A stretch of 60,455 bases of DNA, counting the filler. It is 5 parts of 5 records of this genome, joined end to end, with 100 filler letters (N's around TTAATTAATTAA, not from the genome) between each part and the next. Parts side by side here need not be neighbours in the genome. Positions count along the whole stretch, not along the records: positions 49,957 to 60,455 come from SRR2962707_3340; 4 more parts are not named here. One strand, given 5' to 3'. Positions 6,762 through 60,455 of this stretch are shown piece after piece. Made by a program: the position numbers and the translations under genes. Position 1 is the stretch's first letter. Each line of letters starts with the position of its first letter. The notes beneath the pieces are model-generated. The model searched no databases, had not been told where the DNA came from, and saw nothing but the letters and a program-made list of their open reading frames with translations.

Positions 6762-6762
6762 G

Positions 6763-43260: not shown

Positions 43261-43291
43261 AAAAAGCCTGTCTTTGGGGATGGGCTTTTTT
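43261..43291 (+). terminator. Rho-independent terminator after infB
   Basis: AAAAAGCCTGTCT...GGATGGGCTTTTTT. Confidence 0.75.
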
Positions 43292-43398
43292 ATATATTAA
43301 ATCTGCCATATTAAATCTCAAAATACTTCAAAGTTGAAAGTTAAGTTTTGCAAAAAACATAACCTTCCGTCTTTTATTTCGTTATTTTGTTGTTTAAG

Positions 43399-43767
43399 AT
43401 GAAGATATTGAAAAATAATAGATACGTATTTTCAGCATTTCTTCTGATTTTCATAGTTAACGTAGGCCTTGCCACTAATGGCCAGGAACATAAAACCTCA
43501 AATCAGGAGCAACAAGAGGGCAGGAGAAAGTCAGACCAGACGATGATCCACCCGGACGGTAACTACAATTCACCTGGTCAGGGACAACAAGAATTCCAAC
43601 AACAGGAAAGCGAGCCTCAGCAGGAGCGAGCTTCAAGCTCAGTTTCCGAACCACGAGAAAGGGCTCTGATAAAATCGGACTCATTGGAAGATGACTCAGT
43701 GAGTAAGTACAACTTCATCTTCTATTTCCTTTATAAATTCAAATACGAATCTGAGGAGTCCCCTTAA
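43399..43767 (+). CDS. Small exported Q/E/S-rich protein with aromatic C-terminal motif (ORF track starts at TTG 43387)
   Basis: Signal-peptide-like N-terminus, disordered body, 'SVSKYNFIFYFLYKFKY'. Confidence 0.7.
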   Translation: MKILKNNRYVFSAFLLIFIVNVGLATNGQEHKTSNQEQQEGRRKSDQTMIHPDGNYNSPGQGQQEFQQQESEPQQERASSSVSEPRERALIKSDSLEDDSVSKYNFIFYFLYKFKYESEESP

Positions 43768-44492: not shown

Positions 44493-44557
44493 AATAAATA
44501 AGATTGATTCCTTTTAGGATGCTCTTTTAAAGATACTACATTCTGATTAGAATCGGG

Positions 44558-46853: not shown

Positions 46854-46890
46854 ACCTCAAAAATACGACTAAGGAATAAGCGTAGTTCCT

Positions 46891-46930
46891 GTTTAACCAT
46901 TTTTAACAACGATTAACGACTGATTAACAA
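46891..46930 (+). promoter_or_regulatory. Four TTAAC direct repeats at 10/10/11-bp spacing (candidate OmpR-type binding site) in a divergent promoter
   Basis: TTAAC at 46893, 46903, 46913 and 46924. Confidence 0.65.
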
Positions 46931-46990
46931 TGAGATAGAGTCCCTCTACGTACTTTCGATTAGGGAATTGGATAAAAAACAAAACTCAAA

Positions 46991-47833
46991 ATGAATATGA
47001 AAATCAAGTTAAAAATTCTGACTTTGATGGTGTCACTTTTTGCATGTGGTGCCAGCCTCGCACAGTCTGGTGACGAGGGAAAAATCGTTGTGGAAATTAC
47101 CAAAGAAGTGAATGGTGAAAAGAAAACATTCAAGGGCGAGTACAATAGCACAGAAGAGATGCGGGCAGACCCTAACTATCAGGAATTTGCCGGTAATGAA
47201 GGTGGTTTTAACATCTGGTTTGATGACGACATGGACGAAGGTGTATTTTTTAACCTCGATCAATTGAAAAGCCAGAATCAGGCGTTCTTCAAATATTTTG
47301 ATGGGGATGAAGAAGATGCTGGACAGGGCTTCTTTTTTAAGCATTTTGATGATGATTCAGTTGATGGCTTTTTTAATTTCCACCTTGACAATATGGACAT
47401 GGATGAGTTCAAAGAACGAATGAAGAGGTTAGGTGAGGAAATGGAGATGATGATGGAAAGTGTTCATGAAGATGGTAACGGTCAGGTGAAAGTATTTGCC
47501 CTGAAACGGGTGAAAGTCTCTGATGTAAATGATGAATTTGGCAAAAAAGGGAAGGTAGATGATAATTATAAGCTGGAGCTGGAGGATTTGAATTTCTACC
47601 CCAATCCATCTGCTAATGGGCGGTTTAAGGTACGGTTTAACGTACCGCAAGAAGGTGAACTAAGTATCAAGGTTTCCAATCTTGAAGGAAAAGAAGTTTT
47701 TAGCAGGTATTTTGAAAGGTTTGGCGGGCTGTATTCAGAAATGATTGATCTTTCCGGGCAAAATGATGGAATCTACCTGTTGGAAATAAGCCAGGGTAAA
47801 AAACGACTTACAAAGAAAATTGTGATCAACTAA
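46991..47833 (+). CDS. Secreted protein with T9SS type A C-terminal sorting domain
   Basis: Signal peptide. CTD 'FYPNPS...SNLEGKEV...IDLS...GIYLLEI...TKKIVIN'. Confidence 0.9.
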   Translation: MNMKIKLKILTLMVSLFACGASLAQSGDEGKIVVEITKEVNGEKKTFKGEYNSTEEMRADPNYQEFAGNEGGFNIWFDDDMDEGVFFNLDQLKSQNQAFFKYFDGDEEDAGQGFFFKHFDDDSVDGFFNFHLDNMDMDEFKERMKRLGEEMEMMMESVHEDGNGQVKVFALKRVKVSDVNDEFGKKGKVDDNYKLELEDLNFYPNPSANGRFKVRFNVPQEGELSIKVSNLEGKEVFSRYFERFGGLYSEMIDLSGQNDGIYLLEISQGKKRLTKKIVIN

Positions 47834-47850
47834 GTATGGTTTTGGTTTAT

Positions 47851-47884
47851 AAAGCAGCCGATTGATCATCAATCGGCTTTTTTT
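47851..47884. terminator. Terminator hairpin between convergent genes
   Basis: AGCCGATTGA-TCA-TCAATCGGCT followed by a T-run. Confidence 0.8.
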
Positions 47885-48563
47885 ACTTGACTTTAAGGCT
47901 GAAACCTACCCCATGATGATTTCGGATTTCAAGGGAAGGGTCTGTTTTTAAATATTTACGTAATCGTGTGATGAATACATCTAAGCTTCTGCCTTTGAAA
48001 TAATCGTTCTCACCCCAGACCTCTTCCAAAATCTCCTCTCTTTTCACTAATTCGTTTTGGTTGTGAATCAGTAGCTTCAGTATCCCACCCTCCATTTGAG
48101 TGAGTGAATGGGAGCTATCACCACAGCTATAAATAAGGTTCCTTTCGTCATAGCTGGATTGCCCAAACTTCGCAGCATGAATGCTTTTAGGGGGTTGTGG
48201 CTGATTCCGACGAATGAAAACATTGATACGATATTCCAGCTCCTTCATGGAAAAGGGTTTAGTTACATAATCATCTCCACCAACCTCAAACCCTCCAAGT
48301 CGATCTTCTTCCTGTGATTTGGCAGTAAGAAAAATGATGGGAATAAAATCATCCTTAGATCGAATAGAGGAGGCGAGCTCAAATCCATCCATTTTTGGCA
48401 TCATCACATCCAGAATGCAGAGCTCAAAATCATCCTTTTCAAACTGTGAGAATGCCGCTGCTCCATCAATACACCATTTTACCTCATGACCCGCTTCTCT
48501 GAGATTATCTTCAATCATAAAGCCCAGACTTTCGTCATCTTCTGCAAGTAGAATTTTAGCCAT
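47883..48563 (-). CDS. OmpR-family response regulator (second RprY-like). Start is ATG 48563; the ORF track over-extends it.
   Basis: 'MAKILLAEDD', 'DVMMPKMDG', 'FLTAK', 'RSLDVFITRLRK'. Overlaps the kinase stop. Confidence 0.93.
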   Translation of the reverse strand: MAKILLAEDDESLGFMIEDNLREAGHEVKWCIDGAAAFSQFEKDDFELCILDVMMPKMDGFELASSIRSKDDFIPIIFLTAKSQEEDRLGGFEVGGDDYVTKPFSMKELEYRINVFIRRNQPQPPKSIHAAKFGQSSYDERNLIYSCGDSSHSLTQMEGGILKLLIHNQNELVKREEILEEVWGENDYFKGRSLDVFITRLRKYLKTDPSLEIRNHHGVGFSLKVK

Positions 48564-49791
48564 TAGGTAAAACGATTTTGAATGTGCTTCCTTTTCCGAT
48601 CTCAGACTGAAGAGAAATTTTTCCACTAAGTTTTTTAACCAGGGAAGAGACAATATGAAGTCCCAAACCAAATCCTTTTTGATTATGCTGGTGGTTGCTC
48701 TCAGGCACTCTGTAGAATTTTTGAAATATCTTTTTCTGATGTTTAGGCGAAATCCCTAAACCATCATCCGTTATGACAATTTCAGTAACCCTGGGACCTT
48801 GCTTAATACTCACATGCACGTTTCTGGCACCATATTTCACTGCATTATCCAGGAGGTTTCGAACCGCATTATCTAGCAGTTTCACATTAGAGTTTATTTT
48901 TTTTGGGCTGGAAATATCAAGCTTCCATCCGATCATTTTTGAAGCGTACTGTTCTTTGACCTCACTAATCAACTCATCAAAAAATTGATTCAAGTCCACC
49001 CATTCTTTTTCAACTTTTATGCTGGATTCCAGTAAGGCAGAATTCAATATGTCTTCTACATTCTTTTGTAGTCTACTTATTTCTTTTTGAATAATGCTCA
49101 CATATTTCACCTCTTTCTCCCCCGATCTTTCACTAAGTGTGCTTGATGCGAGTGACAAAGTAGCGAGGGGAGTCTTAAGTTCATGGCTAACATTATTGAT
49201 AAAGTCTTTTTGGATTTCACTGAGTCGCTTTTGACGGAGGATCACAAATAAGGCATAACCAAAAAAGATAATGACAACAAGAGAAATGGCTGTGGTAAAC
49301 TTCCAGAGATCAAATCCGGCAAAAAGGTCTTTCGATTTATCTGGGAAATACACTCCAAAATAATACTCGTCGTTCTTCAAAACCGGAATAGGCTCATGAT
49401 CACCGGCGTATTCCAAGTTCACATTTTCAGCATACACCATTTGATCGTTTGCGCAATCATAAACGCCATATTCAAAGTCCTGGGTAATGGCCCTTTTTTT
49501 TATTTCAGCGGAGATCAGATATTCCAGATTTTTTAAGTCTATGCGGTCATTGGTGCGGACAATGAAATAATTACCCGAAATCTGTTCAATGGGATTTACA
49601 GAGGGAAAATCTTTTCCGTTTGCTTCACAGAGTGACTCTACAACATTCCGAAGGGCAACCTGCACATTGTGATTGAAGACCTGATCTTGCTGAGCGATGG
49701 CCCTATTGAGCCAAAAGACCTGGGTCCCGATAATACCTACCAGCGAAAGAATGGCAAGAACGACTAGTACGCGTATGTGAGCATTCTTCAT
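48556..49791 (-). CDS. Sensor histidine kinase (second RprX-like)
   Basis: 'FINNVSHELKTP', 'NLLDNAVKY', 'DDGLG', 'GFGLGL', two TM helices. Confidence 0.95.
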   Translation of the reverse strand: MKNAHIRVLVVLAILSLVGIIGTQVFWLNRAIAQQDQVFNHNVQVALRNVVESLCEANGKDFPSVNPIEQISGNYFIVRTNDRIDLKNLEYLISAEIKKRAITQDFEYGVYDCANDQMVYAENVNLEYAGDHEPIPVLKNDEYYFGVYFPDKSKDLFAGFDLWKFTTAISLVVIIFFGYALFVILRQKRLSEIQKDFINNVSHELKTPLATLSLASSTLSERSGEKEVKYVSIIQKEISRLQKNVEDILNSALLESSIKVEKEWVDLNQFFDELISEVKEQYASKMIGWKLDISSPKKINSNVKLLDNAVRNLLDNAVKYGARNVHVSIKQGPRVTEIVITDDGLGISPKHQKKIFQKFYRVPESNHQHNQKGFGLGLHIVSSLVKKLSGKISLQSEIGKGSTFKIVLPNG

Positions 49792-49829
49792 ACAGCCAAA
49801 AGTACACGGAAAGAAAGTGAAAAAACGGG

Positions 49830-49856
49830 GTTTAACAACTCATTAACAATCATTAG
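49830..49856 (+). promoter_or_regulatory. TTAAC direct repeats upstream of the second kinase (cut by contig end)
   Basis: TTAAC at 49832 and 49843, TTA at 49853. Confidence 0.5.
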
Positions 49857-49956
49857 NNNNNNNNNNNNNNNNNNNNNNNNNNNNNNNNNNNNNNNNNNNN
49901 TTAATTAATTAANNNNNNNNNNNNNNNNNNNNNNNNNNNNNNNNNNNNNNNNNNNN
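49857..49956. other. Artificial contig linker
   Basis: Same 100-nt spacer. Confidence 0.98.
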
Positions 49957-50222
49957 TCCTTTTCATTGGCATCAAAGAAAACGGCGCTGCGTTTTTTACG
50001 CCCAAGCGTTGCCCCGTAGACCCGACCATTCCGGTCAAGTTCTTTTGGAAGGTAGATCGATATTTCCGGTATTTTGCCGATGGCCTGGAGAACGGCTGCC
50101 TCGCGTTCTTCTACCGTCTCCGCCCGGGCACCCAAACCGGGCCCGGTTAAAAACGGCAAAAAGACAACCAACACAATCGTCAGACGCGACAGTAAACCCA
50201 CAGCCCAGCAACCCCGGCACAC
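49957..50222 (-). CDS. Putative exported protein, 3'-truncated by contig end; start ambiguous
   Basis: Hydrophobic 'LTIVLVVFLPFL' and an 'ARA|ET' cleavage site. Frame is open to the contig edge. Confidence 0.5.
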
Positions 50223-50460
50223 TCATGATGAGAAACACTTTTCCTCATCACTAGGGTAAAGAAGAGCCCACCGTCATCGAAGAGCTTGGGACATATCTGC
50301 TGATATTTCCGAGTTATCGGGTGTTTTTCAGAATACTTTGAAACAGAATGTAGAAACGGCCCTGAAAAAGCACATCCCTGACCAACATACGAAGCTCCAT
50401 ACCCCGGAAACATTCAAAGATATTATCTGTTCCCAAAACATTTCTGATTAGGAGTTGGTC

Positions 50461-50490
50461 GGGTTGGGAGCACCACATGGCTCCCAACCC
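50461..50490 (-). terminator. 11-bp perfect hairpin just after the 1167-aa gene (no U-tract; terminator or mRNA-stabilising stem)
   Basis: GGGTTGGGAGC-N8-GCTCCCAACCC. Confidence 0.6.
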
Positions 50491-50499
50491 AGTTTAATC

Positions 50500-53400
50500 T
50501 TAGTCATAGACTGTCATGGAGCCATCCGGGCGGGCGACCCAGATATGACCATTGGAACCAATCGACACAGTTTGTGCCCTGGTTTCATCGACGCGCTTCC
50601 AGTTTTTGTCCTTGGCGTTCCATTTATACAAGACGTCTCCGTTCGGGCCACCGAGGTGCCAGACCGAACCGTCAAGCCCAACCGCGACGTCACTGGCAGA
50701 TCCCGGAATCTCGTTCCAGCGGTTATTTGCGAACTGATAGATTTCGCCATTTCGGCCAACAGACCAGACTTCCCCATCAGCACCGGCCGCAACTTTGGAC
50801 AAATTCCCCGGCACTTTGATCCAGCCACTACCGCCCATGCGATAAATGGTGCCATTCCCGCCAACATGCCATTGAGTTCCGGCATCATCGACGGCAATGT
50901 CCGAAGCCCAGCCCGAAATCTGGGTTTTCTTACCGAGGGAATCGATGTTCCACATTTTGCCATCCGTGGTCAGGATAAAGGCATTGTTTTTCAAACGACC
51001 GACTTCGACCTGGGCGACCCCGGATGCAAGGACCTTCTTCCAACCCAATTGCCCTTTCGGCCGGATATACAGCGAACCACCGCCTCCGACATGCCAAACA
51101 TCACCACTTTGGCCGATACTAACCTGACTTGCCCATCCGGACACATCACGCCAATTTTTGGGACCGGACATCACGGCGTATGTGACCGTTGGGTCATCGA
51201 CCTCGATATGTGTGAACGTGATCCCGTTATCCTGAACCACGGTTTTGGTCGTATCCTTGAGCATACCGGAATCCGCCATCTGGGGTCGCGGCGTTGATTT
51301 ATGACGATACACAATGATCGCGTCATCCGGGCGCAACGCCCAAAGTGTCCCCGCAGAACCGGCATCAACCTGACTGACCGTGCCGCCACGCCCTTCTTTC
51401 CAATCGCCGTTATAGGAAAGGCGGAAAACCTTATCATCAAGGCTGGTAATCCAGACGGCACCATCGGGACTAACCGCCACATCCTGGGCTTTCCGGCCAA
51501 AGTCTTTCCATTGGTCATTCAGAAAATAATGCAGCTTGTCATTGGTATCGATGACCCACAACATACCGCCCGGCCCTGCCGAAATCTTTTTGGCTTTGGG
51601 GCCATTGATACGCTGCCATCTGAAATCATCCGGGCCGGAAACATAAAGGCTGTTGCTGCCGCCGATATGCCATTTACGCCCATCCGGGGCAACATCCACC
51701 GCATGCCCAGTCCCGGGTACATTGCGCCAGTTGTTGCCGTTATAGGCCTTCATTGCCCCACTTTCCATCAGGGCAAAGGCCGATTTTCTGTCAGGCATTG
51801 CCGCGATATCGACAAAGGTATCGCCGCCGCCGATTGCCGACCATTTATTGTCATTTGCCGCATCGGCCCAGTAGACCTTACCACCACCGATATGCCAAAC
51901 ATCACCAGACGGACCGACGGAAATGGCCGTCGCCTGGCCTTCGAAATTATGCCACTGGCCTTCGTTATAAACAAAATACAGCGGATCCGCACTGAAGCGG
52001 GTGTCCTTGTAATGTGCGCTTGCCGCAGCTTCGATCTTTTTCAGATCACTTGCCGAAGGTCGCACTTCGTTGCTGGAGGCCAAGGCCCAGTATGAATAAA
52101 CCTTGGCGGCCTCATCCTTGTTTTGCAGCCAAACCTTCAGGCTTGGTTTATAGGATTTGGCATGTTCAAGTGCGCGCATCAGTGCTGGACGCGCATCAGC
52201 CTTGGCCAGGTTTTTGTTCAACTCTGCTTCAAAGATGGCTAATGCGATTTCAATCACGATTTGCGGCCCGCTCACCGCAAGCATCTTGGTGATTAGTTTC
52301 TTCGACACCTTAAAGGCCGTCTTTGCCGCAACACGTGCGGCATCATCGGCCAGTTCACCCATTTCTTGACCAACCTTTGTTGCGACCTTGCCGACGTCAT
52401 CACTTGATCCAAGGATATTATCGACACTGTCTCCTGCCTCTTGCCCAACGCGCTTCATTTTATCGTCGAGGTTGGTTATTTCATCAAATTGGTCGTAGTG
52501 TCCGTCTGTCCTGTTGGGGAAAACTTTGTAGATCATTTGATCGGCAACGCTGCCATCATCAAGTGGAACAAGAGCCGTTGAAAACATGCCGAGTGTCGGA
52601 ACTGCCGCCACTGTATTGACCAGAGCGGCACGGTTGGTCACCTGCTCAAAATTCGGCGGCACAGGTAACAAATCACTGAACAGGAAACGCATATCCGAAC
52701 GCCCTGCTTTTGTGTTAGCTTCCTGCCTGTTCTTGAGCTTAATAGTCTGGGCCGCGTGCCAGACGTCATAGGCTTTTATGGCCTCTGTCGCCAGATAGAC
52801 GCGATAGCCGTTAGCAAAAGTTTCGATTTCCTTGATCAGGCGCCCTTCCGGACTGCTGGCAGATACACGACCACTTTCTACAGCGGAAATTACGTGGTTA
52901 AGCACCGCATAACGCAATGCCAGGCTTTCTTCGGGAAACTGTGCAATTTCCTGCCAAAGCGCTTCGACGGAGCGTGTCCCGTCCGTTCCAACAGCACGGC
53001 CCATGCTAACAGCAATATGTTCGAGTTCCGTGCGCTCGTCGATCAATTTCAGGACGACTTCGGCCGCACCGTCCATCTGCATGAAGCCTTTGCCAGCATA
53101 AGGCGCCATTTCCCATTCAATCGCAGGGGCAAGGCAACCGCGCGGCGAATCAACGGATTCCTTTGAACGGGTATAACCGGCCGGGCAGCTATAACAACTA
53201 CCAAAGTTCTTTGGGTCCCAGAATGCGTTGTCGCCATATTGCTTGCACCCGGCTTCGTCTTTTTTCTCAGCCGATGCCGTTTCAAAAATCGGGCGCCCAC
53301 AAGCCTGATTACTTTTTACCGAATTGATCGTGCGAACATATCCGTCCGGGCATGACCAGCAGGTGCCGCCATCAATCAGATCATAAACAGTATTATCGCC

Positions 53401-54003
53401 ACCACATTCTGCACCTTTGAATTCCGCCTTGCGCCAGCTAAACTGCAAAAAGCCCGTCACACGTTCACAGGCTTTGTCGGAATGTACCGGATCAAATATG
53501 GTCCGGTTATAGCCCGACGGGCAGCGCCAGCAAGTGCCCCCATTATACATGTCAAAGAAGCTTCCTGAGGGGCACTGCGAGACGCCACTAAGACGTTGTG
53601 CCGGTTTTGCATCACTGAAGATATCTTTGTCCGTGACCTTGTGGCAGGCCGTGTCAGTGGTGATATGGTCGCCTGATCGGGAATAACCAGACGGGCAGGA
53701 CCAACATGCTTCAAGATCATAAAACTGTCCCGAAGGGCAGCTTATACCCGGTTTTCCTTCATACTTTGCCGGCTGGCCCTCACAGCTTTCCTGTAGGTTG
53801 CCGTTTTTATCAAGCCCCCCACAAGTGGTTTCTGCCCTTGCCGGGGAACTGGCAAACATCATTCCGGCCAAACCAAGTATCACAACGACCAGAGCAAGCA
53901 TGAAATGCCGCCCGGAATAGCTGACAGAGTTTCTTGTTCTTGTTTGAGGTATACGTTGGTGCGCCATATCCACAGAAATGGACGCGTTGTTTGTGTTGCT
54001 CAT
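50500..54003 (-). CDS. Large exported protein: long signal region, 4 Cys-rich repeats, helical core, 12 tectonin-like repeats (two 6-bladed propellers)
   Basis: RBS GGAG/AAGGA, 'SPARA|ETT'. Four C-x10-16-C(W/Y)xCPxGYxR...C repeats. Twelve W...G....(I/V)xVG.DG.VW repeats. Confidence 0.85.
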   Translation of the reverse strand: MSNTNNASISVDMAHQRIPQTRTRNSVSYSGRHFMLALVVVILGLAGMMFASSPARAETTCGGLDKNGNLQESCEGQPAKYEGKPGISCPSGQFYDLEACWSCPSGYSRSGDHITTDTACHKVTDKDIFSDAKPAQRLSGVSQCPSGSFFDMYNGGTCWRCPSGYNRTIFDPVHSDKACERVTGFLQFSWRKAEFKGAECGGDNTVYDLIDGGTCWSCPDGYVRTINSVKSNQACGRPIFETASAEKKDEAGCKQYGDNAFWDPKNFGSCYSCPAGYTRSKESVDSPRGCLAPAIEWEMAPYAGKGFMQMDGAAEVVLKLIDERTELEHIAVSMGRAVGTDGTRSVEALWQEIAQFPEESLALRYAVLNHVISAVESGRVSASSPEGRLIKEIETFANGYRVYLATEAIKAYDVWHAAQTIKLKNRQEANTKAGRSDMRFLFSDLLPVPPNFEQVTNRAALVNTVAAVPTLGMFSTALVPLDDGSVADQMIYKVFPNRTDGHYDQFDEITNLDDKMKRVGQEAGDSVDNILGSSDDVGKVATKVGQEMGELADDAARVAAKTAFKVSKKLITKMLAVSGPQIVIEIALAIFEAELNKNLAKADARPALMRALEHAKSYKPSLKVWLQNKDEAAKVYSYWALASSNEVRPSASDLKKIEAAASAHYKDTRFSADPLYFVYNEGQWHNFEGQATAISVGPSGDVWHIGGGKVYWADAANDNKWSAIGGGDTFVDIAAMPDRKSAFALMESGAMKAYNGNNWRNVPGTGHAVDVAPDGRKWHIGGSNSLYVSGPDDFRWQRINGPKAKKISAGPGGMLWVIDTNDKLHYFLNDQWKDFGRKAQDVAVSPDGAVWITSLDDKVFRLSYNGDWKEGRGGTVSQVDAGSAGTLWALRPDDAIIVYRHKSTPRPQMADSGMLKDTTKTVVQDNGITFTHIEVDDPTVTYAVMSGPKNWRDVSGWASQVSIGQSGDVWHVGGGGSLYIRPKGQLGWKKVLASGVAQVEVGRLKNNAFILTTDGKMWNIDSLGKKTQISGWASDIAVDDAGTQWHVGGNGTIYRMGGSGWIKVPGNLSKVAAGADGEVWSVGRNGEIYQFANNRWNEIPGSASDVAVGLDGSVWHLGGPNGDVLYKWNAKDKNWKRVDETRAQTVSIGSNGHIWVARPDGSMTVYD

Positions 54004-54013
54004 GTCCTTGCTC

Positions 54014-56620
54014 CTAATCGCGTGCCCGTTTGACGATTGGCGTGTTGTCCACGCTCAGCCACAGACGCCCGTCTTCTTCGACGTCGAAATTCTCAGCTCT
54101 GGAATTGTTGATGAGATCAAAGCTCTTGTTGGTCGCATTCCAGCGGTAGATGTCGTTATCCACACTGCGAATGAAGACCTCGCCGTTTCTCGACACCCGG
54201 ATTGAAACGGCCTTTTGTCCCTGACGCGGACGCTTTTCAAATTCTGATCCGGTCCATTGCCGGACATAAAGATTGCGATCTACAATCCACACATCATCGC
54301 CCGGCCCGACCGAGACGTCGTAAAGCGAATTGAAATCGTCAAACCGCGCAAAGCGGTTGCTGCCCGCGTCTTTGGAATACAGCCAGTAATCGCCGCCGGT
54401 ATAAAAGATGGCATAGACCGTATCGTTCGGCGCAACCGATACGCCTTCCGGCGTCAGGCCACTAACGGTGAATTCCTGCTGGCTGTTATCGCGTTCTCTG
54501 AAAAGACCAACCGACGGCGACGTGGTATAAGCCCAGATATCGCCATTGCTGGCGATATCGTAATCCTGAATGTTGGCGTTCTGATTGCCAAAACCGGTGG
54601 ACTCGCTTTCAAACCGTTTGCGGCGCTCGTCATAGACAAACATGTCCCCGGATTGCCCTTGACCACCGGAGTAGGAATAACCGTAGACATCCCCGTCATT
54701 GCCGATGGAAAGCTTGATATCGGCACCTGATGGTGCCGCGTCTGTATTGATGGTCTCAAAGCGAATGTTCTTGGTAAATGTGAAGCCTTCAACATCGTTT
54801 GACGTGATGGATGTTGTGTCCCCACTGCCATCCATCTCTTCAGATGTGCGTGCTGCAATACGGAGATCGTCACTTTCATCACGTTCAAAGAATTGACTTG
54901 AAAGAACCGATCCGTCCTCGGTAACCACCCATGGATAGCCTTGCGGTCCGGCGGCCACCTGTTTGGGCGTTCTGGCTGCAATGCGGACGGTTTCAAATTC
55001 GCCTGTGTCTGAATTGTATCGGCGCAGAAAGTTGTCTGGCGTCACAATCCAGACAGTGCCATCAGAACCAATCGCAAGGCTGGATGCCTTTTGGCTAACG
55101 TTCTGGCAGCCTGTTTCACCGCAATATAGCAGAAAGCCATTTTCAAGAATGGTCCACGGGCTGCCATCAGGCATCACTGCTACAGCGACACCCCGGCCAT
55201 CAATAGGCGTAAACCCCATGCCGTCGCCATCGATACGGTAAAGACGGCCTTGCGCATTCACCGTGACGACATCACCATTTGCCGCAATCGCTATGTCTGC
55301 AGCCGTTTGCCCGGTAACCTGTTGCCAATCGCTTCCGGTATGACGAAACACCCGACCAAGTGCAGAAACGCCCCATGGGTTACCATCCGGATCCACTGCC
55401 AGACGCACCAGGCTGCCTGGAAAATCGTTAAACCGCCGCCGGTCATTTGACCAACGCAGGATTTCGCCGCCACGAAGAGCAAAAACGCTACCATCCCGGC
55501 CAATGGCCAAGCGGTCTGCGACGTCGCGTGTATCAGTAAAATTCAAATTGCCCGAATAGGTGCGACTGGCTTGATCACTTGTCGGATCATCAGCAACAGG
55601 ACGTTCCGTTCTGTCGTCCCGTCCGGTGTTACCATTGGACGCAATTTCTGTTTCCGAGGGTGGTGGTGCAAGCTGTTCTGCGCGGGATTGTTCTGCTTGG
55701 TTTGTTGGCGGAGTTGCGTCGTCGGCTTTCGGACTATTTGATGAAACTTCATCTGCCTTGATCTCATCTGCCTTGATGTCATCGGGTTTGGCATCCGGTG
55801 CGGTGAGTTCTTCTGCACCGGTTGGTTCATCATCCTGTTCAAGCCCCGAGGAAACTGCGATCCGGACCTTCGCCAGAATACGGTTGTCTTGTAACACCAC
55901 CCAAGGCGCCCCTGAACGGGTCACGGCAATTTCCAGTGCCTTTGTCACACCGCGCAGTGCGAACCATTGCTGGTCACGCTGCCGCCAGAGCATCACACGG
56001 CCATCTGGATGGACCTTTGCAACGCGTTGATTATCCCCGGCAGCAATATCGCGTGCTCGGCCCGGCAAGGCATGCCACCCGTCATCATCGCGCATCCTGA
56101 TTTCATTGGTTGGTGTTACCGCCCATAACCGTCCGTCCGGGTCCAATGCCAAACGTTTTGCAACCCCCTCGACCGGCTCCCAGCTATGGCGCAGATCAAG
56201 CCAGCGATGAATGGAACCATCGGCCTTTGCAATGTAGATTTCACCACTTGCATTGCCTGCAACATCAACAACATCGCTGTCTTTGCGTTCCCACCACAGA
56301 CCGTTATAGCGATACACATCCCCGTCAGCATCAATCACCCAAGGTCGGCGCTCTGCGGCACCGGTGATACGGGCAAAGGACCCTGACATCGTGCGCCAGC
56401 TTTCTTCATGCGGATCCCATCTAAGCGGCGTGCCATTGGTGGAAATGGCATAAGCCTCGCCAATCGCGGTTATGGATATATCCTGCCCCTGACCGGGCAA
56501 AGAGAACCAGACCCCGTCATCAAGAACCTTCGTCGCATGGCCTACCCCCGCCATGAAAAGCAGGATTACAGTGACCAAAACGGCGAAACCCGAACGATGT
56601 GAAAGTGCTTTCATGATCAA
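54014..56620 (-). CDS. Exported tectonin-repeat protein, about 18 blades (three 6-bladed propellers) with acidic linkers; ATG start possibly 56614
   Basis: Signal peptide ending 'GHA|TK'. Repeats such as 'WEPVEGVAKRLALDPDGRLWAV' and 'FPGSLVRLAVDPDGNPWGV'. Confidence 0.85.
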   Translation of the reverse strand: MIMKALSHRSGFAVLVTVILLFMAGVGHATKVLDDGVWFSLPGQGQDISITAIGEAYAISTNGTPLRWDPHEESWRTMSGSFARITGAAERRPWVIDADGDVYRYNGLWWERKDSDVVDVAGNASGEIYIAKADGSIHRWLDLRHSWEPVEGVAKRLALDPDGRLWAVTPTNEIRMRDDDGWHALPGRARDIAAGDNQRVAKVHPDGRVMLWRQRDQQWFALRGVTKALEIAVTRSGAPWVVLQDNRILAKVRIAVSSGLEQDDEPTGAEELTAPDAKPDDIKADEIKADEVSSNSPKADDATPPTNQAEQSRAEQLAPPPSETEIASNGNTGRDDRTERPVADDPTSDQASRTYSGNLNFTDTRDVADRLAIGRDGSVFALRGGEILRWSNDRRRFNDFPGSLVRLAVDPDGNPWGVSALGRVFRHTGSDWQQVTGQTAADIAIAANGDVVTVNAQGRLYRIDGDGMGFTPIDGRGVAVAVMPDGSPWTILENGFLLYCGETGCQNVSQKASSLAIGSDGTVWIVTPDNFLRRYNSDTGEFETVRIAARTPKQVAAGPQGYPWVVTEDGSVLSSQFFERDESDDLRIAARTSEEMDGSGDTTSITSNDVEGFTFTKNIRFETINTDAAPSGADIKLSIGNDGDVYGYSYSGGQGQSGDMFVYDERRKRFESESTGFGNQNANIQDYDIASNGDIWAYTTSPSVGLFRERDNSQQEFTVSGLTPEGVSVAPNDTVYAIFYTGGDYWLYSKDAGSNRFARFDDFNSLYDVSVGPGDDVWIVDRNLYVRQWTGSEFEKRPRQGQKAVSIRVSRNGEVFIRSVDNDIYRWNATNKSFDLINNSRAENFDVEEDGRLWLSVDNTPIVKRARD

Positions 56621-56643
56621 GCCTGTCTGTTGGTGGTCCCCGA

Positions 56644-58563
56644 TCAGGACTCAGTCAGCAGATGTTTGCGAAGAGTCGTCAGGTTTTCTTCAACGCTGAT
56701 GTCATCGAAAGATGATTTGATCTCCAAATCGCCCATGCGGAATTCGTCGAAGAAGGCTTTGCCCTGCAGCTTATCGAGAATGCTTTCGAAGTTTGGGCGG
56801 GCCGTGAACCAATCGCCGTGCCGCCGTTCCAATCGCGAAATATCCTGCTCGAGTGGAGAAAGCTGACCAATAATGCGTTCGCGGTCTTCTGGTGACTGGC
56901 GCACATAGTGCGGCCGGCGCGGAGTCAATAAAATCAGGATAGATTTTTCGAAATTGCGCTCTGTTCGTTCGGAAAACAAATAGCTTAGTATCGGCATATC
57001 CTTGAGAACCGGCACCCCGTCCGAAACATTAGAAGTTTCGCGTTCGCTCAGCCCACCAAGGATAAGTGTTTCACCGAACTTCATGGTAACGGTCGAGTTT
57101 ACGTTTGTTTTCGTCGTATCAAGGCGGAACTCAAAGACAACTGAATTGGAAGGATCGGTCAAAAAGGTGCGTTCCGCCACCACGTGCAGTCTGATTTCAT
57201 CGTTCGCCAAGACCTCCGGTGTTACGGCAAGTTTCACACCGACTTCTTTTTGAACGGAAACGCTGTCCCCGTTGCCGCCCGAAACGGCTGCAGCGAGAAT
57301 TTCTGTTCCCGAAAAGAATTCCGATGTTTTCCCGGTCTGGGCGACCAGACTTGGTTTGGCCAATATCTGATTATCCGAGTTCAGCGAATTGGCGATATTT
57401 AGCGAATAGTTCACAGCCGGGATGCTGATCTGGGACGTGATGGTTTTGGTACTCTCCTCCAGCCCTGTACCAAGGAAATCCCGCGTTTTGGTGCGGGAAA
57501 TCCCGGCAGCTGGTGCGCCAGTCAACGGATTACCGAATTGTAGTTGCAACCCGTTCAGAAGGTTCACACCACGCGACTCACGCATGTCTTCCTGTGTCCC
57601 GATCAGGACGACATCCACGACCACCATTGATGCATCATCCTGACTGGCAACAACCTCATCGCCATATGGATCTGCAGGCGCATCCCCATAGGCATCATAA
57701 GCGTCTGATGAGCCATCCCCATAAGGATCACCATAGGGATCACTTTGATAGGTAGTTCCGCCGCCAGCATAGGGATCATAGCCGCCTTGGGCCAAAATTA
57801 CCTTGGCATCGCTTTCATAAAACGACCGCCAGTTATCAACGCGCCGACGCACAAAAGCCAAATCACTGCGATCTGGTGCCACATTGGCATATTGCGCCAT
57901 CAAGGCATCAACCCCTGCACGGTCATCCATCGCCGCAAGCGCCATCATCCGGGCCTTGAGGATTTCAGGACTGGTGCTCGCGTCCGGCGTAATTTTTGCC
58001 AATCGGGAAAGGGCGGCGTCAGCCGTTTTCGCATCATGGGCAAAGTATGAGGCAACCGCCAGATTATAGAGAACATCCGGACTGTCAGACCGGTACATCG
58101 CGACATAAGAGAAATGGGTCTGCGCTTCCTCATAGCGGCGCTGGCTTTTGTACAAAATTCCCAGTTGATAATGCGCCGCAAGATTGCCGGAACCAAACTT
58201 CAGCGACTGACGGTAGCCTTGTTCAGCCATAATATATTTGGCCGTATCTCCGTCATCTCCCAGCTGATGATAAACGTAGCCGTTCAGAAACTGCAGATGC
58301 GGATTGGTGATATCAAGTTTCAGCGCAAGATTGGCGGCATGCGATGCCATATCGAGATCTCCACGCTCAATCGCATTGAACGCTTCGGTTACAAGGAGCT
58401 GTACCTTGTTGCCTTCTTTTAACGTATCACCTTGTGCTGACGCCCCGAAATCACTTGAGAATATGCTTGATGTTCCAGGCCCCTCAAGCGTCTGGCACCC
58501 CCCAATCGCAAGCAAAGCTGAAAAGGCCATGACCTGACATAGCCGTAACGATAGATTTTGCAT
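56644..58563 (-). CDS. Lipoprotein with N-terminal TPRs fused to a secretin (type II/III secretion outer-membrane pore) domain
   Basis: Lipobox 'IGGC' (Cys23), TPR helices at aa ~55-245. Secretin motifs 'ILAKPSLVAQTGKTSEFFSG', 'EVGVKLAVTP', 'GETLILGGL', 'GVPVLKDMPILSYLF', 'ILILLTP'. Confidence 0.9.
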   Translation of the reverse strand: MQNLSLRLCQVMAFSALLAIGGCQTLEGPGTSSIFSSDFGASAQGDTLKEGNKVQLLVTEAFNAIERGDLDMASHAANLALKLDITNPHLQFLNGYVYHQLGDDGDTAKYIMAEQGYRQSLKFGSGNLAAHYQLGILYKSQRRYEEAQTHFSYVAMYRSDSPDVLYNLAVASYFAHDAKTADAALSRLAKITPDASTSPEILKARMMALAAMDDRAGVDALMAQYANVAPDRSDLAFVRRRVDNWRSFYESDAKVILAQGGYDPYAGGGTTYQSDPYGDPYGDGSSDAYDAYGDAPADPYGDEVVASQDDASMVVVDVVLIGTQEDMRESRGVNLLNGLQLQFGNPLTGAPAAGISRTKTRDFLGTGLEESTKTITSQISIPAVNYSLNIANSLNSDNQILAKPSLVAQTGKTSEFFSGTEILAAAVSGGNGDSVSVQKEVGVKLAVTPEVLANDEIRLHVVAERTFLTDPSNSVVFEFRLDTTKTNVNSTVTMKFGETLILGGLSERETSNVSDGVPVLKDMPILSYLFSERTERNFEKSILILLTPRRPHYVRQSPEDRERIIGQLSPLEQDISRLERRHGDWFTARPNFESILDKLQGKAFFDEFRMGDLEIKSSFDDISVEENLTTLRKHLLTES

Positions 58564-58796
58564 CCTGCCCCGTTCAATCTGTCCCCAATGCGACCATGCG
58601 CATCCTTGTCCGAGCCCACATTACATACCTTTAGATGCATGCCTTGTGCAGACGCGGACATATTTTCCACAGGCTAGCGAAGCACCATCTCGGGTGACAG
58701 AGACCTGATGTATGGGGAAGGGACGAAGTTGTATGAAGACGGGTAAGACATACAAATCCGCCCAGACGACCGGGATGCTGGAAAGCAGGGAGTTGG

Positions 58797-59861
58797 TCAG
58801 GTGTTCTTCACAAGTCGCACGACACCTGACCTGACCTTTCTGGCGTATTCTGCTGGGGGCACGCCATATTTCTGATTAAACGCGGTCGAAAAATTGGTTG
58901 AATGGTTATAGCCAACTTCCCAAGCAACCTCTTTGATAGCCATGTCCGTACGCTCCAGCAGTATCTTGGCCTTTTTCATACGGACATCGCGCAGCACTTC
59001 AAAAACGGTATCTGAATAAAGCTCGCGGAACGCCTGATTAAGACGCTTTTCTGTTGTCCCAAGTTTTACGGCCAGGTCAGAGAGGCACGGCGGTTCTTGC
59101 AAATTGTCTTGCAGCATCTGATAGGCGCGCTGCGCTTTATCGATATCTGCGCGCTTTACCAATAGCTGACCATCATCTGCGTCTGCGGTCGCGCGCAAAG
59201 ATTGCTCGATTAGCGTCAGATACAAAAGCCCGATGCCTTCCATCTTGATTTGCTGGAGCGATGGCGACGTCTCTATGCTCAGATTCTGGATCAATGTTTC
59301 GCGCATGGCGTGTGTCACAGAAAAACTGATCGGCTCAATACTTTCAACATCAGGCTGCAAAAGAGGTTGCAACGATTCAGGAACGCTATTGTCAAAGTAT
59401 CGCTGGAAGACATCTGGTGTTAGGCTCAAACCCAAGGCCTGAACATTTTGTCCGCCGGGCAACGTGAAGGACGTATCCTTTCCGTCATGCACAAACAAAT
59501 GGCCCTGAACCGATGAAAAAAGAATTTCCGAACCATCTTCTGGCCGGATCATCGAATATTCCCCCTCAAGCGCGACCATTGCGATGATGAGCTTTTTACC
59601 GGATATGCTGCCCGCCGTGATGACCATGTCCTGATCCACGGTAAGGCGCTGGTAGTCGACATTACCACCGTTGGACAATGAGATACGTTCGTGATGACGG
59701 TGAATAACCTGATCGGAAATATCCCTGTCTGGGCCAACGACAATCTGGTCTTTCTCGCCCGATGCAAGTTCAAGTTCCATCTTGTATAGCGTTGAGCCCG
59801 AACGACCACCTTGTCTCAGATCGGATATGGTGCATTCTGCATCATGACGCCCCGCCATCAA
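58797..59861 (-). CDS. AraC-family transcriptional regulator (PchR/YbtA-like)
   Basis: C-terminal double HTH 'PPCLSDLAVKLGTTEKRLNQAFRELY...RMKKAKILL...KEVAWEVGYNHSTNFSTAF'. Confidence 0.92.
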   Translation of the reverse strand: MMAGRHDAECTISDLRQGGRSGSTLYKMELELASGEKDQIVVGPDRDISDQVIHRHHERISLSNGGNVDYQRLTVDQDMVITAGSISGKKLIIAMVALEGEYSMIRPEDGSEILFSSVQGHLFVHDGKDTSFTLPGGQNVQALGLSLTPDVFQRYFDNSVPESLQPLLQPDVESIEPISFSVTHAMRETLIQNLSIETSPSLQQIKMEGIGLLYLTLIEQSLRATADADDGQLLVKRADIDKAQRAYQMLQDNLQEPPCLSDLAVKLGTTEKRLNQAFRELYSDTVFEVLRDVRMKKAKILLERTDMAIKEVAWEVGYNHSTNFSTAFNQKYGVPPAEYARKVRSGVVRLVKNT

Positions 59862-60113
59862 TCAAACCCATCTTGTTCCAACAGTTCCGTCAAAGATCAG
59901 TATGACTTGCGTACACGCTTTTGGCCAAACTGATAACCGCAAAACTGTTTTTTCTTCCTATTGATAATCACTGTTGCACACGTATCTGAACAGTTGGCGT
60001 CATGCCCAACTTTAAACGTGCCGCACATGACCGAGTTGCGTTCTCATCGCCCTCACATAACCTGAATACTTATCAGGAAACAGATGAACACAACGTTCCG
60101 AAACACATGACAT

Positions 60114-60340
60114 GTGCCCCATCCCGGACGAGAAACGTTGCGTGCAGCGCTCAACAAACAGCCTGATGATTTTGACCCAAGCACTATCGTGAATGGAACG
60201 TCATCGAGCGCATGCTTGGCGATCTCACGGACTTCCGCAAGATCGCCACAATATACGACAAAAACGCTCAAAACTTTATGCTGTGGTTATACTTAGCTGC
60301 CCTAATATGCTAGTGGATTTCAATGAGTGTAGACGCTAAG
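60114..60340 (+). pseudogene. IS5-family transposase C-terminal relic with degenerate right end
   Basis: Frame from 60182 reads HYREWNVIERMLGDLTDFRKIATIYDKNAQNFMLWLYLAALIC*W, matching IS5 'YxxRNxIERxFxxLKxFRRIATRYDK'. Frameshift near 60181, in-frame TAG at 60311, end-like ATGAGTGTAGACGCTAAG. Confidence 0.8.
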
Positions 60341-60455
60341 GCATAGGAACTTCTGTTGTAAACTTAGGAACAGAATAACCTGCATGTACCGCCGGGCGTT
60401 CAGCGATGCGCAAATACCAGTCTTTGATGTTTGGAAAAGCGTTCAAATCCACTTC

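Follow-up and report, generated by a model that had tools for sequence, protein, structure and literature searches.

Secretins that have been studied, in T2SS, T4P, Tad, T3SS and filamentous-phage (pIV) systems, all need, to our knowledge, a piston or a filament for gate opening, and N0-N2 domains dock them to an inner-membrane platform. HxcQ is a self-piloting lipidated secretin of the T2SS, and SpsD of Aeromonas is a dedicated extra secretin that serves S-layer export with a shared machine. In T4P (PilQ with PilF/PilW/Tgl) and Tad systems (RcpA with TadD), a TPR lipoprotein cooperates with the secretin. The smallest known secretin system, that of pIV, has very few partners, but requires the inner-membrane ATPase complex pI/pXI and exports the phage filament. 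Two-partner secretion places the gene of a dedicated outer-membrane transporter (TpsB) next to that of a large Sec-dependent exoprotein (TpsA), with no ATPase or inner-membrane machine; TpsB, which threads unfolded cargo, is a barrel of the Omp85 type with POTRA domains. AlgK/AlgE, BcsC, PgaA and PelB join a periplasmic TPR scaffold, sometimes lipidated, to a monomeric beta-barrel porin, in operons with a synthase and modifying enzymes.

The DNA analysed here (the window) is a stretch of 60,455 nucleotides in which N/ttaattaattaa linkers connect five contigs, and the gene set of interest lies on the last contig (49957-60455). It is best explained, with a probability of about 0.5, as a self-contained AraC-controlled module around an orphan outer-membrane secretin, exporting or displaying lectin partners. 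The secretin is always found beside a lectin protein in genomes without the usual machinery, and so the module may be a new and simpler protein-export route. A literature search found no description of such a secretin-lectin module, in keeping with a preliminary description of this DNA that knew of no characterised system with the layout.

The 639-aa secretin of the module has the channel domain and the last N-domain in common with GspD, and a lipoprotein N-terminus like that of HxcQ, and its proposed substrates would likewise arrive through Sec and fold in the periplasm; it differs in carrying a TPR region in place of N0-N2, and GspE, GspF and prepilin peptidase are missing from the module's genomes. 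The N-terminus is PilW-like, but TPR and secretin are in one polypeptide, whereas in T4P and Tad they are separate, and the module lacks a pilus ATPase, a platform, a pilin peptidase and an AMIN domain. In its layout the module follows the logic of two-partner secretion, but the channel, unrelated to TpsB in sequence, is a secretin, a type thought to let folded proteins through. As with AlgK/AlgE, BcsC, PgaA and PelB, sugar polymers may be a theme, but the channel of the module is not a porin, and its flanks show no synthase or modifying enzymes. Both large partner proteins match the Tectonin family of fungal and animal lectins (Laccaria tectonin 2; fish-egg lectin), of which the bacterial proteins differ in chaining two or three units, one of them adding a Cys-repeat module and a predicted helical domain without recognised fold.

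Gene layout of the module

The source contig, 10.5 kb long, belongs to a marine Thalassospira-like bacterium. ORF calling placed all five genes on the minus strand, to which the domain coordinates below also refer: an AraC regulator (58797..59861, 354 aa), the TPR lipoprotein-secretin (56644..58563, 639 aa), the tectonin protein Tec868 (54014..56620, 868 aa), the Cys-repeat/helical/tectonin protein Tec1167 (50500..54003, 1167 aa) and the first 88 codons of an exported giant protein (49958..50222), which starts at 50222 and leaves the contig at 49958. The intergenic gaps are, in gene order, 233, 23, 10 and 277 bp. Coordinates and Pfam matches thus reproduce the five co-oriented genes of the preliminary description and its 23-bp and 10-bp gaps around the 868-aa gene. 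There is no ORF of more than 72 aa in the 594 bp upstream of AraC, and the contig is therefore without an ATPase, pilin or platform gene, as had been stated. Directly 3' of the Tec1167 stop codon is a GC-rich inverted repeat (50461..50490, no strand assigned; 11-pair stem, 8 GC pairs), which likely marks the end of the transcription unit, and a gap of 277 bp separates the Tec1167 gene from the fifth gene.

The AraC protein matches HTH_18 (Pfam, E 7.7e-21), and an AraC gene precedes the Cys-repeat/helical gene in four genome loci (L006, L008, L014, L022) and also in metagenome loci. Comparison with the orthologues in loci L001 and L002 gives dN/dS ratios of 0.06-0.16 for all four complete genes (0.12-0.15 for AraC), which are under purifying selection.

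Over its 88 aa, the fifth ORF shares 99% identity with the N-terminus of a 4110-aa ORF on an orthologous scaffold; at the C-terminal end of that ORF are three F5/8-type-C and three Ricin-B stretches. The orthologous contig (secretin 93% identical) goes on, not into a T2SS or Tad cluster, which the preliminary description had named as evidence against its idea, but into this lectin-tailed protein of about 4110 aa, followed by two ABC genes, another TPR-secretin and an AraC gene. A similar second pairing occurs in four lineages (L027, L050, L031, L040), where TPR-secretins of a subfamily 31-35% identical lie next to homologous giant proteins of the Ricin-B/discoidin type. The fifth gene, whose product was correctly described as exported and truncated at the end of the contig, most probably forms part of an adjacent second module rather than of this one.

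The TPR-secretin and the tectonin proteins

The architecture of the secretin is lipobox, TPR region, Asp/Pro/Tyr/Gly-rich linker, last N-domain with secretin domain, and C-terminal extension. Pfam finds Secretin (E 1.2e-30, residues 395-549; matched in 46 of 46 family members) and TPR matches (residues 117-194). The N-terminus is lipobox-like (...LLAIGGC), with Cys23 kept in at least 90% of the 46 members. The TPR region (residues about 53-231, 57871..58407) resembles TPR lipoprotein pilotins: the PilW profile TIGR02521 aligns with residues 15-207 (E 3e-10, 40 bits, cut-off 154), and in this region the family profile finds generic TPR proteins only in the PDB. The last N-domain-like stretch and the channel domain (residues 314-549, 56917..57624) align with positions 338-588 of the 600 in the GspD profile TIGR02517 (82 bits, cut-off 351); PilQ scores 86 (cut-off 284), and all NCBIfam matches fall far below their cut-offs. 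Solved GspD, PilQ, RcpA and pIV chains match only from residue about 301-400 on (GspD structure 6hcg, E 7.6e-17; pIV structure 7ofh against the channel domain, E 1.1e-10). An N0-N2 region was not detected with NCBIfam and Pfam profiles or by comparison with PDB chains, and Secretin_N, STN and AMIN are not among the 23 families matched by the 46 members. The C-terminal extension (about 90 aa; residues 550-639, 56647..56916) is conserved, with F608, G611 and D612 invariant and W618 nearly so in the family alignment; no Pfam or NCBIfam family matches it, and it may act like an S-domain. At E <= 1e-30 the TPR-secretin family comprises 425 cluster representatives.

Tec868 matches Tectonin in four stretches (Pfam, E 1e-32) and the tectonin 2 structure 5fsb (E 1.9e-16). 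Its conserved blocks (residues about 38-250, 349-585 and 592-868), between which are low-complexity linkers, are compatible with three units, each about as long as the Tectonin profile of 216 positions. Tec1167 also matches Tectonin in four stretches (E 1.6e-36) and 5fsb (E 9.6e-22), and consists of the Cys-repeat module, the helical domain and then two tectonin-size units. Judged from block size, three units against two are consistent with the roughly 18 and 12 blades first counted; likewise, the Sec-type signal peptides proposed for both proteins correspond to N-terminal hydrophobic segments, which the cut ORF has as well.

All 18 cysteines of Tec1167 are within residues 61-290, in a module (residues about 58-295, 53119..53832) of repeats of the type C..G.F.D...G.CW.CP.GY.R, the Cys columns of which are invariant in the family alignment. 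An AF2 model of residues 55-660 (pLDDT 80) predicts the repeats to be beta-hairpin modules (pLDDT 83-96). Insertions of the same Cys repeats are carried by neutral ceramidases. The helical domain (residues 300-660, 52024..53106), modelled with good confidence at model residues 255-420 and 545-606 and low confidence at 423-542, contains one hydrophobic stretch by hydropathy scan (574-593). Foldseek gave no match to the model at E <= 1e-3, and the best VIA-align Z was 5.4. Among homologues the C-terminal lectin is exchanged between Tectonin, Ricin-B and DM9, as expected of an extracellular targeting domain.

Partner linkage and standard secretion machinery

Each of the 26 genome loci retrieved with the secretin as sole query has a full-length Tec868 homologue (37-92% identity) directly downstream of the secretin on the same strand, in invariant order and with short gaps, and a Cys-repeat/helical gene beside the pair, upstream in 24 loci and downstream in 2. 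The 37 family genomes include 20 with close secretin copies, 25 in number, and each copy (25/25) has a full-length Tec868 partner directly downstream; the 25 full-length Tec868 copies are in the same 20 genomes, each adjoining a secretin and none found away from one, and the Cys/helical gene is present in these 20 genomes too. The pairing is kept by three of three metagenome secretins that are only 40% identical (L053, L054, L080), and the linkage still holds in metagenome loci where partner identity is down to 22-30%. A tree of 38 TPR-secretins unites the 17 partner-linked rows in one group (support 94; 0 of 500 shuffles as low). Linkage is also kept in genomes with two or three paralogous modules, between which identity to the proteins of the window is 37-45% for the Tec868 family and 24-31% for the Cys/helical family.

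The Cys/helical gene is doubled in one locus (L022) and one genome (G427); with its lectin part and an AraC gene, it has no secretin closer than 6-8 kb in 13 of the 32 metagenome loci that are at least 13 kb long, and one sampled genome (G385) has a Cys-repeat/tectonin protein with no adjacent secretin. Only the 868-aa protein accompanies the secretin without exception. The proposal that homologous secretins would be syntenic with both partners held in all 26 loci, but as a description of one fixed module it stands for Tec868 and not for the Cys/helical gene; moreover, distant TPR-secretins (25-36% identical) have mostly housekeeping genes as neighbours. The flanks vary between loci, and the 57 ORFs annotated in them include no T2SS, T4P or Tad genes.

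The preliminary interpretation, partly supported by this synteny, gains further from the genome-wide absence of a standard cluster. With positive controls for the machinery families matching in 12-13 of 14 reference genomes, 20 of 21 secretin-bearing family genomes, their completeness mostly unstated, have neither a T2SS/T4P/Tad (T2SSF) platform nor a full-length GspE/PilB-type ATPase. T2SSF is present in 3 of the 37 family genomes and in just 1 of the 21; the T2SSE family has no match in 9 of the 21, only partial matches in 11 (ORFs of 322-384 aa) and one full-length match. Two partial matches that were examined are conjugative VirB11/TrbB proteins, encoded beside VirB10/TraG and TrbE/TrbL. 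Prepilin peptidase was found in none of three genomes checked, and a complete 4.6-Mb genome, the sole secretin of which is the module's own, lacks T2SSF, T2SSE and prepilin peptidase. One family genome (G429) has a GspE/PilB-type ATPase adjoining a T2SSF gene. Two genomes with distant TPR-secretins (G102, G020) have full GspE/PilB-type ATPases; therefore, genome-level orphan status applies to the Thalassospira family only.

Possible functions of the module

As a lipoprotein with its own pilotin-like TPR N-terminus, the secretin would probably reach the outer membrane and assemble there without a separate pilotin and, devoid of N0-N2 platform-docking domains, would operate with no part played by a pseudopilus, ATPase or platform. 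The three-propeller protein Tec868 would be its obligate partner, and the Cys-repeat/helical/lectin protein a second, more freely exchangeable one. Sec may take both across the inner membrane; after folding and disulfide formation in the periplasm, they would exit, or reach the cell surface, via the secretin. Passage might be driven by propeller units going through singly, with glycan binding outside preventing backsliding; the lectin domains might bind glycans of the cell's own surface, or of algae, protists or other bacteria.

Tec868 might instead be not cargo but a constant part of a secretin complex, structural or regulatory, such as a cap in the periplasm or at the surface, a gate-opener or an anchor; the true substrates would then be the Cys-repeat/helical/lectin proteins, with genes next to the pair or at other sites, or others. 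The strict one-to-one adjacency of Tec868 to the secretin, in constant order with short gaps, is as compatible with a structural partner as with cargo; the Cys/helical gene, by comparison, moves, is doubled and occurs without a nearby secretin, and Tec868 is the better conserved of the two families, with a basic C-terminal tail kept in 26 of 27 copies. We regard this as a real but distinctly less probable possibility, since no lectin propeller is among the known partners of secretins, and Tec868, with a cleavable signal peptide of the ordinary kind, long and flexible linkers and three units of lectin type, is built like a secreted multivalent lectin. It is unlikely that the TPR-secretin is an outer-membrane nozzle for exopolysaccharide, with lectins that bind or organise the polymer. 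The TPR scaffold with an outer-membrane channel does parallel synthase-dependent exporters such as AlgK/AlgE, BcsC, PgaA and PelB, the second TPR-secretin weakly matches BcsC and PrsT, and every partner has sugar-binding domains; for the secretion of exopolymer slime in cyanobacteria and myxobacteria, secretins are reported to be required (PMC12475490). However, no glycosyltransferase, synthase, Wza/Wzc or polymer-modifying gene is in the module, the flanks vary (57 and 82 ORFs), and the module is gained or lost as a unit (21 of 37 family genomes) with no linked sugar genes seen.

That the secretin is an extra outer-membrane gate for a T2SS, T4P, Tad, T3SS or filamentous-phage machine elsewhere in the genome has precedent in SpsD, and the adjoining genes of G429 and the ATPases possible in distant TPR-secretin genomes would allow it; nevertheless, with the N0-N2 docking domains missing, T2SSF and full-length T2SSE absent from all but one of the 21 genomes, prepilin peptidase found in none of the three genomes checked, and no phage genes in the annotated flanks (57 + 82 ORFs, the phage Zot-type ATPase family being outside the search), it is very improbable, and for the Thalassospira family close to refuted. 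Least probable of all is a functionally meaningless neighbourhood, in which unrelated or decaying genes were inherited together. One family and its near relatives supply most of the loci, and some of the repeated synteny reflects shared descent, but the linkage survives changes of gene order, different insertion sites, duplications that give a genome two or three paralogous modules, and divergence of secretin and partner alike, and all four genes are under purifying selection.

Composition of the window and of the secretin gene cluster

The window is not one molecule: it consists of five contigs (1-6762, 6863-14307, 14408-40459, 40560-49856 and 49957-60455) joined by four N/ttaattaattaa linkers (6763-6862, 14308-14407, 40460-40559 and 49857-49956), and its parts derive from two or more organisms. 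Contigs 1 and 5 are Thalassospira-like, contig 1 sharing 76-78% DNA identity with three genomes of the Thalassospira family. Contigs 3 and 4 (GC 0.31-0.42) look Bacteroidota-like, since they encode a Bat/MoxR-vWA operon and a protein bearing a T9SS sorting tail; an AcrB-type efflux pump is encoded there as well. Contig 2 matched none of the four genomes compared; it encodes a 425-aa Kelch-repeat (beta-propeller) protein (6945-8222), and long open reading frames with no Pfam match are found on contig 2 (11945-13984) and contig 1 (902-2587 and 4427-6079). The secretin had no match in G001, the genome nearest to the window, which probably matches the low-GC, Bacteroidota-like contigs. Statements at the level of genomes are therefore based on close relatives and not on the window's own assembly.

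Contig 5 (10,499 bases, GC ~0.53) encodes five genes, all on the minus strand, and no further gene. The gene for an AraC regulator (58797-59861, Pfam HTH_18) is followed by the secretin gene (56644-58563, Pfam Secretin and TPR), then after 23 bp by the gene for the 868-aa protein (54014-56620) and after another 10 bp by the gene for the 1167-aa protein (50500-54003), both of the latter matching Pfam Tectonin. A fifth open reading frame (49958-50222), which runs off the contig at 49958, is separated from the 1167-aa protein gene by 277 bp and a hairpin. The GC-rich inverted repeat at 50461-50490, a perfect one of 11 pairs located 10 bases past the stop codon of the 1167-aa protein gene, probably ends the transcription unit. 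Gene calls on the contig reproduced the five co-oriented genes of the preliminary description with their coordinates and spacings, and Pfam matches agreed with its assignment of an AraC regulator, a TPR-secretin and two large tectonin proteins; the signal peptides that it ascribed to both large proteins are represented by N-terminal hydrophobic segments. For the four complete genes, dN/dS values of 0.06-0.16 indicate purifying selection.

The TPR-secretin family and its lectin partners

Judged by profile scores, the window's secretin belongs to the secretin superfamily, yet lies outside every curated secretin family tested. Its score against Pfam Secretin (PF00263) is 106.8 bits (residues 395-549; cut-off 27.5), and the domain is found in 46 of 46 members of its family; Secretin_N, STN and AMIN are absent from the 23 Pfam families matched by these 46 proteins. 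The scores against GspD (TIGR02517, 82 bits versus a cut-off of 351, profile positions 338-588 of 600 only), PilQ (TIGR02515, 86 bits versus 284, profile positions 253-425 only) and SctC of type III secretion (TIGR02516, 43 bits versus 238) place it in none of these families, nor is it a Tad secretin, the match to RcpA (8odn) being confined to the channel domain (residues 399-549). Matches to the curated secretin models extend over the channel domain and the last N-domain but no further (residues ~314-549), and those to the solved GspD, PilQ, RcpA and pIV chains are confined to the same part. The N-terminal 230 residues, which contain the TPR repeats, show a weak resemblance, and only that, to the pilotin PilW (TIGR02521, PilW/PilF, residues 15-207, E 3e-10), the score of 40 bits against a cut-off of 154 falling short of membership. 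A lipobox-like LLAIGGC is present at the start of the protein, its cysteine being conserved in the family, and a conserved tail of ~90 residues follows the channel domain. The predicted layout, which rests on sequence profiles, is that of a lipidated secretin to which a pilotin-like TPR part is fused and which lacks the N0-N2 domains by which other secretins dock to their inner-membrane partners. An exhaustive search returned 425 cluster representatives at E <= 1e-30, indicating a sizeable family; the best 150 of these 425 are mostly 580-690 aa long and aligned over both the TPR part and the channel. Database labels for these proteins are limited to 'hypothetical', 'TPR repeat protein' or a generic secretin.

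A synteny scan that used peptide patterns from the secretin alone, with one genome per species, yielded 26 loci of Thalassospira, Terasakiella and other Rhodospirillales. In all 26, the gene directly downstream on the same strand encodes a full-length homologue (37-92% identity) of the 868-aa protein, and a homologue of the Cys-repeat/helical body of the 1167-aa protein adjoins this pair. Its gene is located downstream in L001 and L002, which is also the arrangement in the window, and immediately upstream in the remaining 24 loci. An AraC gene precedes the Cys-repeat/helical gene according to Pfam annotation of 57 flanking open reading frames of six loci, the flanks of which are unrelated to each other (nitrate reductase, TRAP and ABC transporters, and others). 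Within the Thalassospira-like family, the linkage is strict: the TPR-secretin is present in 21 of 37 genomes, and 20 of these carry between them 25 close copies (58-93% identity), each of which adjoins a full-length homologue of the 868-aa protein. No such homologue was found away from the secretin in those 20 genomes, and none in the other 17; the Cys-repeat/helical part was found in the same 20. Among metagenome loci, L053, L054 and L080 encode secretins that are 40% identical, and a tectonin partner of 22-30% identity is still located downstream. In a FastTree phylogeny of 38 TPR-secretins, from which 14 near-duplicate rows with a linked partner and L032 (a stop lies inside its called open reading frame) had been omitted, the 17 rows with a linked partner cluster as a single group (support 94; none of 500 shuffles of the labels gave as low a value).

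Both large proteins are members of the Pfam Tectonin family (PF19193, cut-off 30 bits), with scores of 113.8 and 126.3 bits, and both match tectonin 2 in the PDB. Tectonins that have been studied bind glycans, either O-methylated sugars or lipopolysaccharide. The 868-aa protein has three conserved tectonin-type blocks with low-complexity linkers between them, and 26 of 27 copies in its family end in a basic C-terminal tail, [VI][KS][RK][AG][KR][DNG] (for example, VKRARD or VKRAKD), located at 54017-54034 in the window and present in homologues in loci L001-L028. This tail could serve as a signal recognised, for instance, by the TPR region of the secretin.

The 18 cysteines of the 1167-aa protein are confined to residues 61-290, and an AlphaFold2 model of residues 55-660 (58-row alignment, pLDDT 80) consists of beta-hairpin Cys modules followed by a helical domain. 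The helical domain had no Foldseek match to solved folds at E <= 1e-3 with the 606-residue model, in which a single-domain match may be hidden; subject to the same limit, the ClyA-type toxins SmhB, ClyA, PaxB and YaxAB scored E 0.25-0.45 with probabilities of 0.04-0.07. VIA-align gave a best Z of 5.4 for the Cys-repeat/helical model, on unrelated chains with short helical hairpins, and the top ESM Atlas scores for a stored homologue, 0.79-0.83, were in the chance range and included an SseC cluster at 0.80. Hints of a pore-forming or translocon-like function for the helical domain are thus at noise level and serve as a lead only.

The lectin tail attached to this body is exchanged among loci, being Tectonin in L008 and L022, Ricin-B in L006 and L014, and DM9 elsewhere. 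By eye, the C-terminal domains of 120 listed homologues comprise ~63 Tectonin, 22 Ricin-B, 11 ceramidase and 1 DM9, the rest being one PF26146/PF26178, one with Ephrin_rec_like only and ~21 with none. Swapping of tails on a constant N-terminal body is as expected for an extracellular protein aimed at varying glycans. In the ceramidases (P0194, P0145 and nine others, of the neutral/alkaline type, ~700-1500 aa, one of them labelled Verrucomicrobia), the Cys-repeat module (CW.CP.GY.R type) is located between the N- and C-terminal domains. The possibility that this module is a secretin-targeting tag was rejected because the same repeats occur in neutral ceramidases and in Cys-repeat/helical genes with no secretin nearby; it is a general extracellular module. 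DNA sequencing runs with matching sequence are from marine, seawater and algae metagenomes, and no RNA runs were listed.

Sampling from the side of the putative cargo, by comparing an alignment of distant Cys-repeat/helical proteins with metagenome contigs, gave 79 loci (some of them duplicate records), of which 45 match into the helical domain. Of the 32 among these that are at least 13 kb long, 19 hold a TPR-secretin and 13 have no TPR-secretin on the contig. The 868-aa type partner adjoins the secretin in 18 of the 19, and in the remaining locus the secretin is truncated by the end of the contig. One sampled genome likewise encodes a Cys-repeat/tectonin protein without an adjoining secretin. 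Such free-standing genes count against the simple reading of a secretin with its dedicated cargo. An AraC gene accompanies the Cys-repeat/helical gene in seven of eight annotated secretin-less loci, and three of the eight have two convergent copies of it; in two loci each copy has its own AraC gene, and in one a single AraC gene accompanies both copies. Convergent pairs of Cys-repeat/helical/tectonin genes, with no secretin within 6-8 kb, occur in L057, L063, L066 and L070; both copies in L066 and at least one in L057 and L063 have an AraC gene, and a 568-aa Ricin-B/DUF5648 protein is encoded next door in L057.

Secretion machinery and possible routes of export

To our knowledge, all secretins studied are built into a larger machine, whose outer-membrane end they form: type II secretion, type IV pili, Tad, type III secretion or filamentous-phage assembly. 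The larger machine opens the secretin gate from below. In the genomes of three relatives, of which one is complete, the only secretins are copies of the TPR-secretin family; the T2SSF platform family (PF00482) and the prepilin peptidase family (PF01478) were found in none of the three, and the T2SSE ATPase family (PF00437) was not found in two, with the same searches being positive in 12-13 of 14 genomes used as controls. Across the Thalassospira-like family, where the genome carrying L006 is a complete chromosome and completeness figures are not given, T2SSF is present in three of 37 genomes and in only one (G429) of the 21 that have the TPR-secretin. Nine of these 21 have no match to T2SSE, 11 have partial matches only (profile positions ~100-290, open reading frames of 322-384 aa) and one, again G429, has a full-length match, which adjoins its T2SSF gene. 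Two of the partial matches, upon inspection, are VirB11/TrbB conjugation ATPases located beside VirB10 and TraG or TrbE and TrbL. The GspE, GspF and prepilin peptidase that would accompany a GspD-type secretin were thus found in 1/21, 1/21 and 0/3 genomes, respectively, and the genomes do not fit a PilQ or Tad system either, 20 of the 21 secretin-bearing genomes having neither the platform nor a full-length ATPase of the pilus type. Among the 57 flanking open reading frames of six loci, there is no gene of type II secretion, type IV pili or Tad, and no phage gene was annotated among these or 82 others.

The preliminary description had proposed a minimal module that exports tectonin cargo through the secretin, and expected conserved tectonin and Cys-repeat neighbours, no standard machine in the genome and no T2SS or Tad cluster on the continuing contig. 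These expectations are borne out in close relatives: the neighbours are conserved in 26 of 26 secretin-chosen loci, neither T2SSF nor a full-length T2SSE is found in 20 of 21 secretin-bearing family genomes, and the orthologous scaffold continues into a 4110-aa giant protein, ABC genes, a second TPR-secretin and an AraC gene. The TPR-secretins appear to set themselves apart from other secretins in that, in at least one bacterial family, they occur in genomes without such a machine and are inherited one-to-one with a large lectin protein.

In the scheme that we propose, the AraC regulator would switch the module on, and the secretin, as a lipoprotein, would be aided by its own TPR part in inserting into the outer membrane. 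Sec would carry the tectonin protein and the Cys-repeat/helical/lectin protein to the periplasm, where they would fold, and both would exit through the secretin without a pseudopilus. Taken as a whole, from regulator to exit, this sequence of steps has even odds of being correct. The sequences show which domains the proteins have, that the genes are strictly linked and under selection, and that the usual machinery is missing from all but one of the secretin-bearing family genomes; that the proteins pass the channel and that the secretin pilots itself, as well as what drives export and what the lectins target, are inferred. The more demanding reading, to which we assign a probability of about 0.35, is a minimal pathway in which a self-piloting TPR-liposecretin without N0-N2 domains would autonomously translocate folded, Sec-delivered lectins with no pseudopilus, ATPase or platform, the three-propeller tectonin protein being either cargo or gate-opener, and in which sister clades would do likewise for giant Ricin-B/discoidin proteins.

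The principal rival, which we think unlikely, gives the 868-aa protein the role of a fixed subunit or gate-opener and not of cargo; its homologues adjoin all 25 close secretin copies, and the 13 long contigs without a TPR-secretin concern the Cys-repeat/helical gene. A lesser alternative is that the secretin is a nozzle for polysaccharide, in favour of which secretins are reported as necessary for slime secretion (PMC12475490). That the secretin might serve a machine encoded elsewhere in the genome is also given less weight; G429 has both the platform and the ATPase, and the other 20 secretin-bearing family genomes do not. The idea that the linkage is meaningless is likewise a minor one, to be set beside the unrelated flanks of the loci and the purifying selection on all four complete genes. 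The accessible portions of two other sources (PMC6668835 and bioRxiv 10.1101/031039) treat secretins solely as components of larger systems, and no description of an orphan secretin or a secretin-lectin module was found in the literature searched, which had most subscription journals and supplements outside its scope.

The module would resemble two-partner secretion most closely in its working logic, and self-piloting liposecretins or pilotin-secretin pairs most closely in its parts. If autonomous export by the secretin can be shown, it would count as a new type among Gram-negative secretion routes, it would show how a secretin gate opens without a piston, and it would provide a cassette of two or three genes by which Gram-negative cells could release proteins in folded form. 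The multivalent lectins of marine Alphaproteobacteria (Tectonin, Ricin-B, DM9 and discoidin types), one of which has a helical domain with no match to solved structures in the searches run, are candidates for attaching to or attacking algae, protists or bacteria.

A second pairing and distant TPR-secretins

The fifth open reading frame of the module contig (49958-50222) is the start of the 4110-aa exported protein, which lies on the orthologous scaffold (L001:10357-13929 with L027:7228-16500) and has three F5/8-type-C and three Ricin-B stretches at its C-terminal end. After it come two ABC genes on the other strand, a TPR-secretin of 34% identity and an AraC gene. In another family genome (L050), this second type of secretin is encoded ~3.5 kb from a 72% identical giant protein. 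The more distant TPR-secretins of L031 and L040 have Ricin-B proteins as neighbours (1859 aa and convergent in L031, 2384 aa and directly upstream in L040), both of them distantly homologous to the giant (E 1e-12 and 6e-33, respectively). The TPR-secretins of L029 and L046 abut a 675-aa FG-GAP/ASPIC propeller protein and a 1077-aa tricorn-like protease, respectively. Large exported lectin or propeller neighbours thus recur in the clades nearest to the window's secretin.

Of 401 Alphaproteobacteria sampled, 24 have a TPR-secretin at E <= 1e-20, and among 20 loci fetched from them, tectonin partners are found only with the 57% identical secretin. The other 19 loci have no T2SS, type IV pilus or Tad gene among 82 open reading frames, and many of these secretin genes stand among housekeeping genes; full GspE/PilB-type ATPases are encoded in two of five genomes with distant TPR-secretins. 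Co-occurrence with tectonin in this sample was discarded as independent evidence, since Tectonin is present in three of the 401 genomes and in the module in two of these three, but those two are kin.

Near individual distant TPR-secretins there are ExbB/ExbD genes (L042:7933-9122, directly downstream), a MacB/YbbP-like ABC pair (L029:5131-8330, next door) and an HlyD-family gene (L034:5384-6844), whose products could be energy sources or periplasmic partners; none of them recurs. ABC, MacB-like and ExbBD neighbours were rejected as the energy source of the module because each is found at a single locus only (L027, L029 and L042, respectively) and never in the core module. Two TPR-secretin genes are in tandem in L043:9338-13027, in a genome of ~1 Mb (G284). 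In L030:7895-8719 and L032:11131-12036, a pentapeptide-repeat protein of 274-301 aa is encoded after the secretin, and genes for NMT1-like binding proteins come before it; the secretin of L030 is sister to the tectonin-linked clade on the tree.
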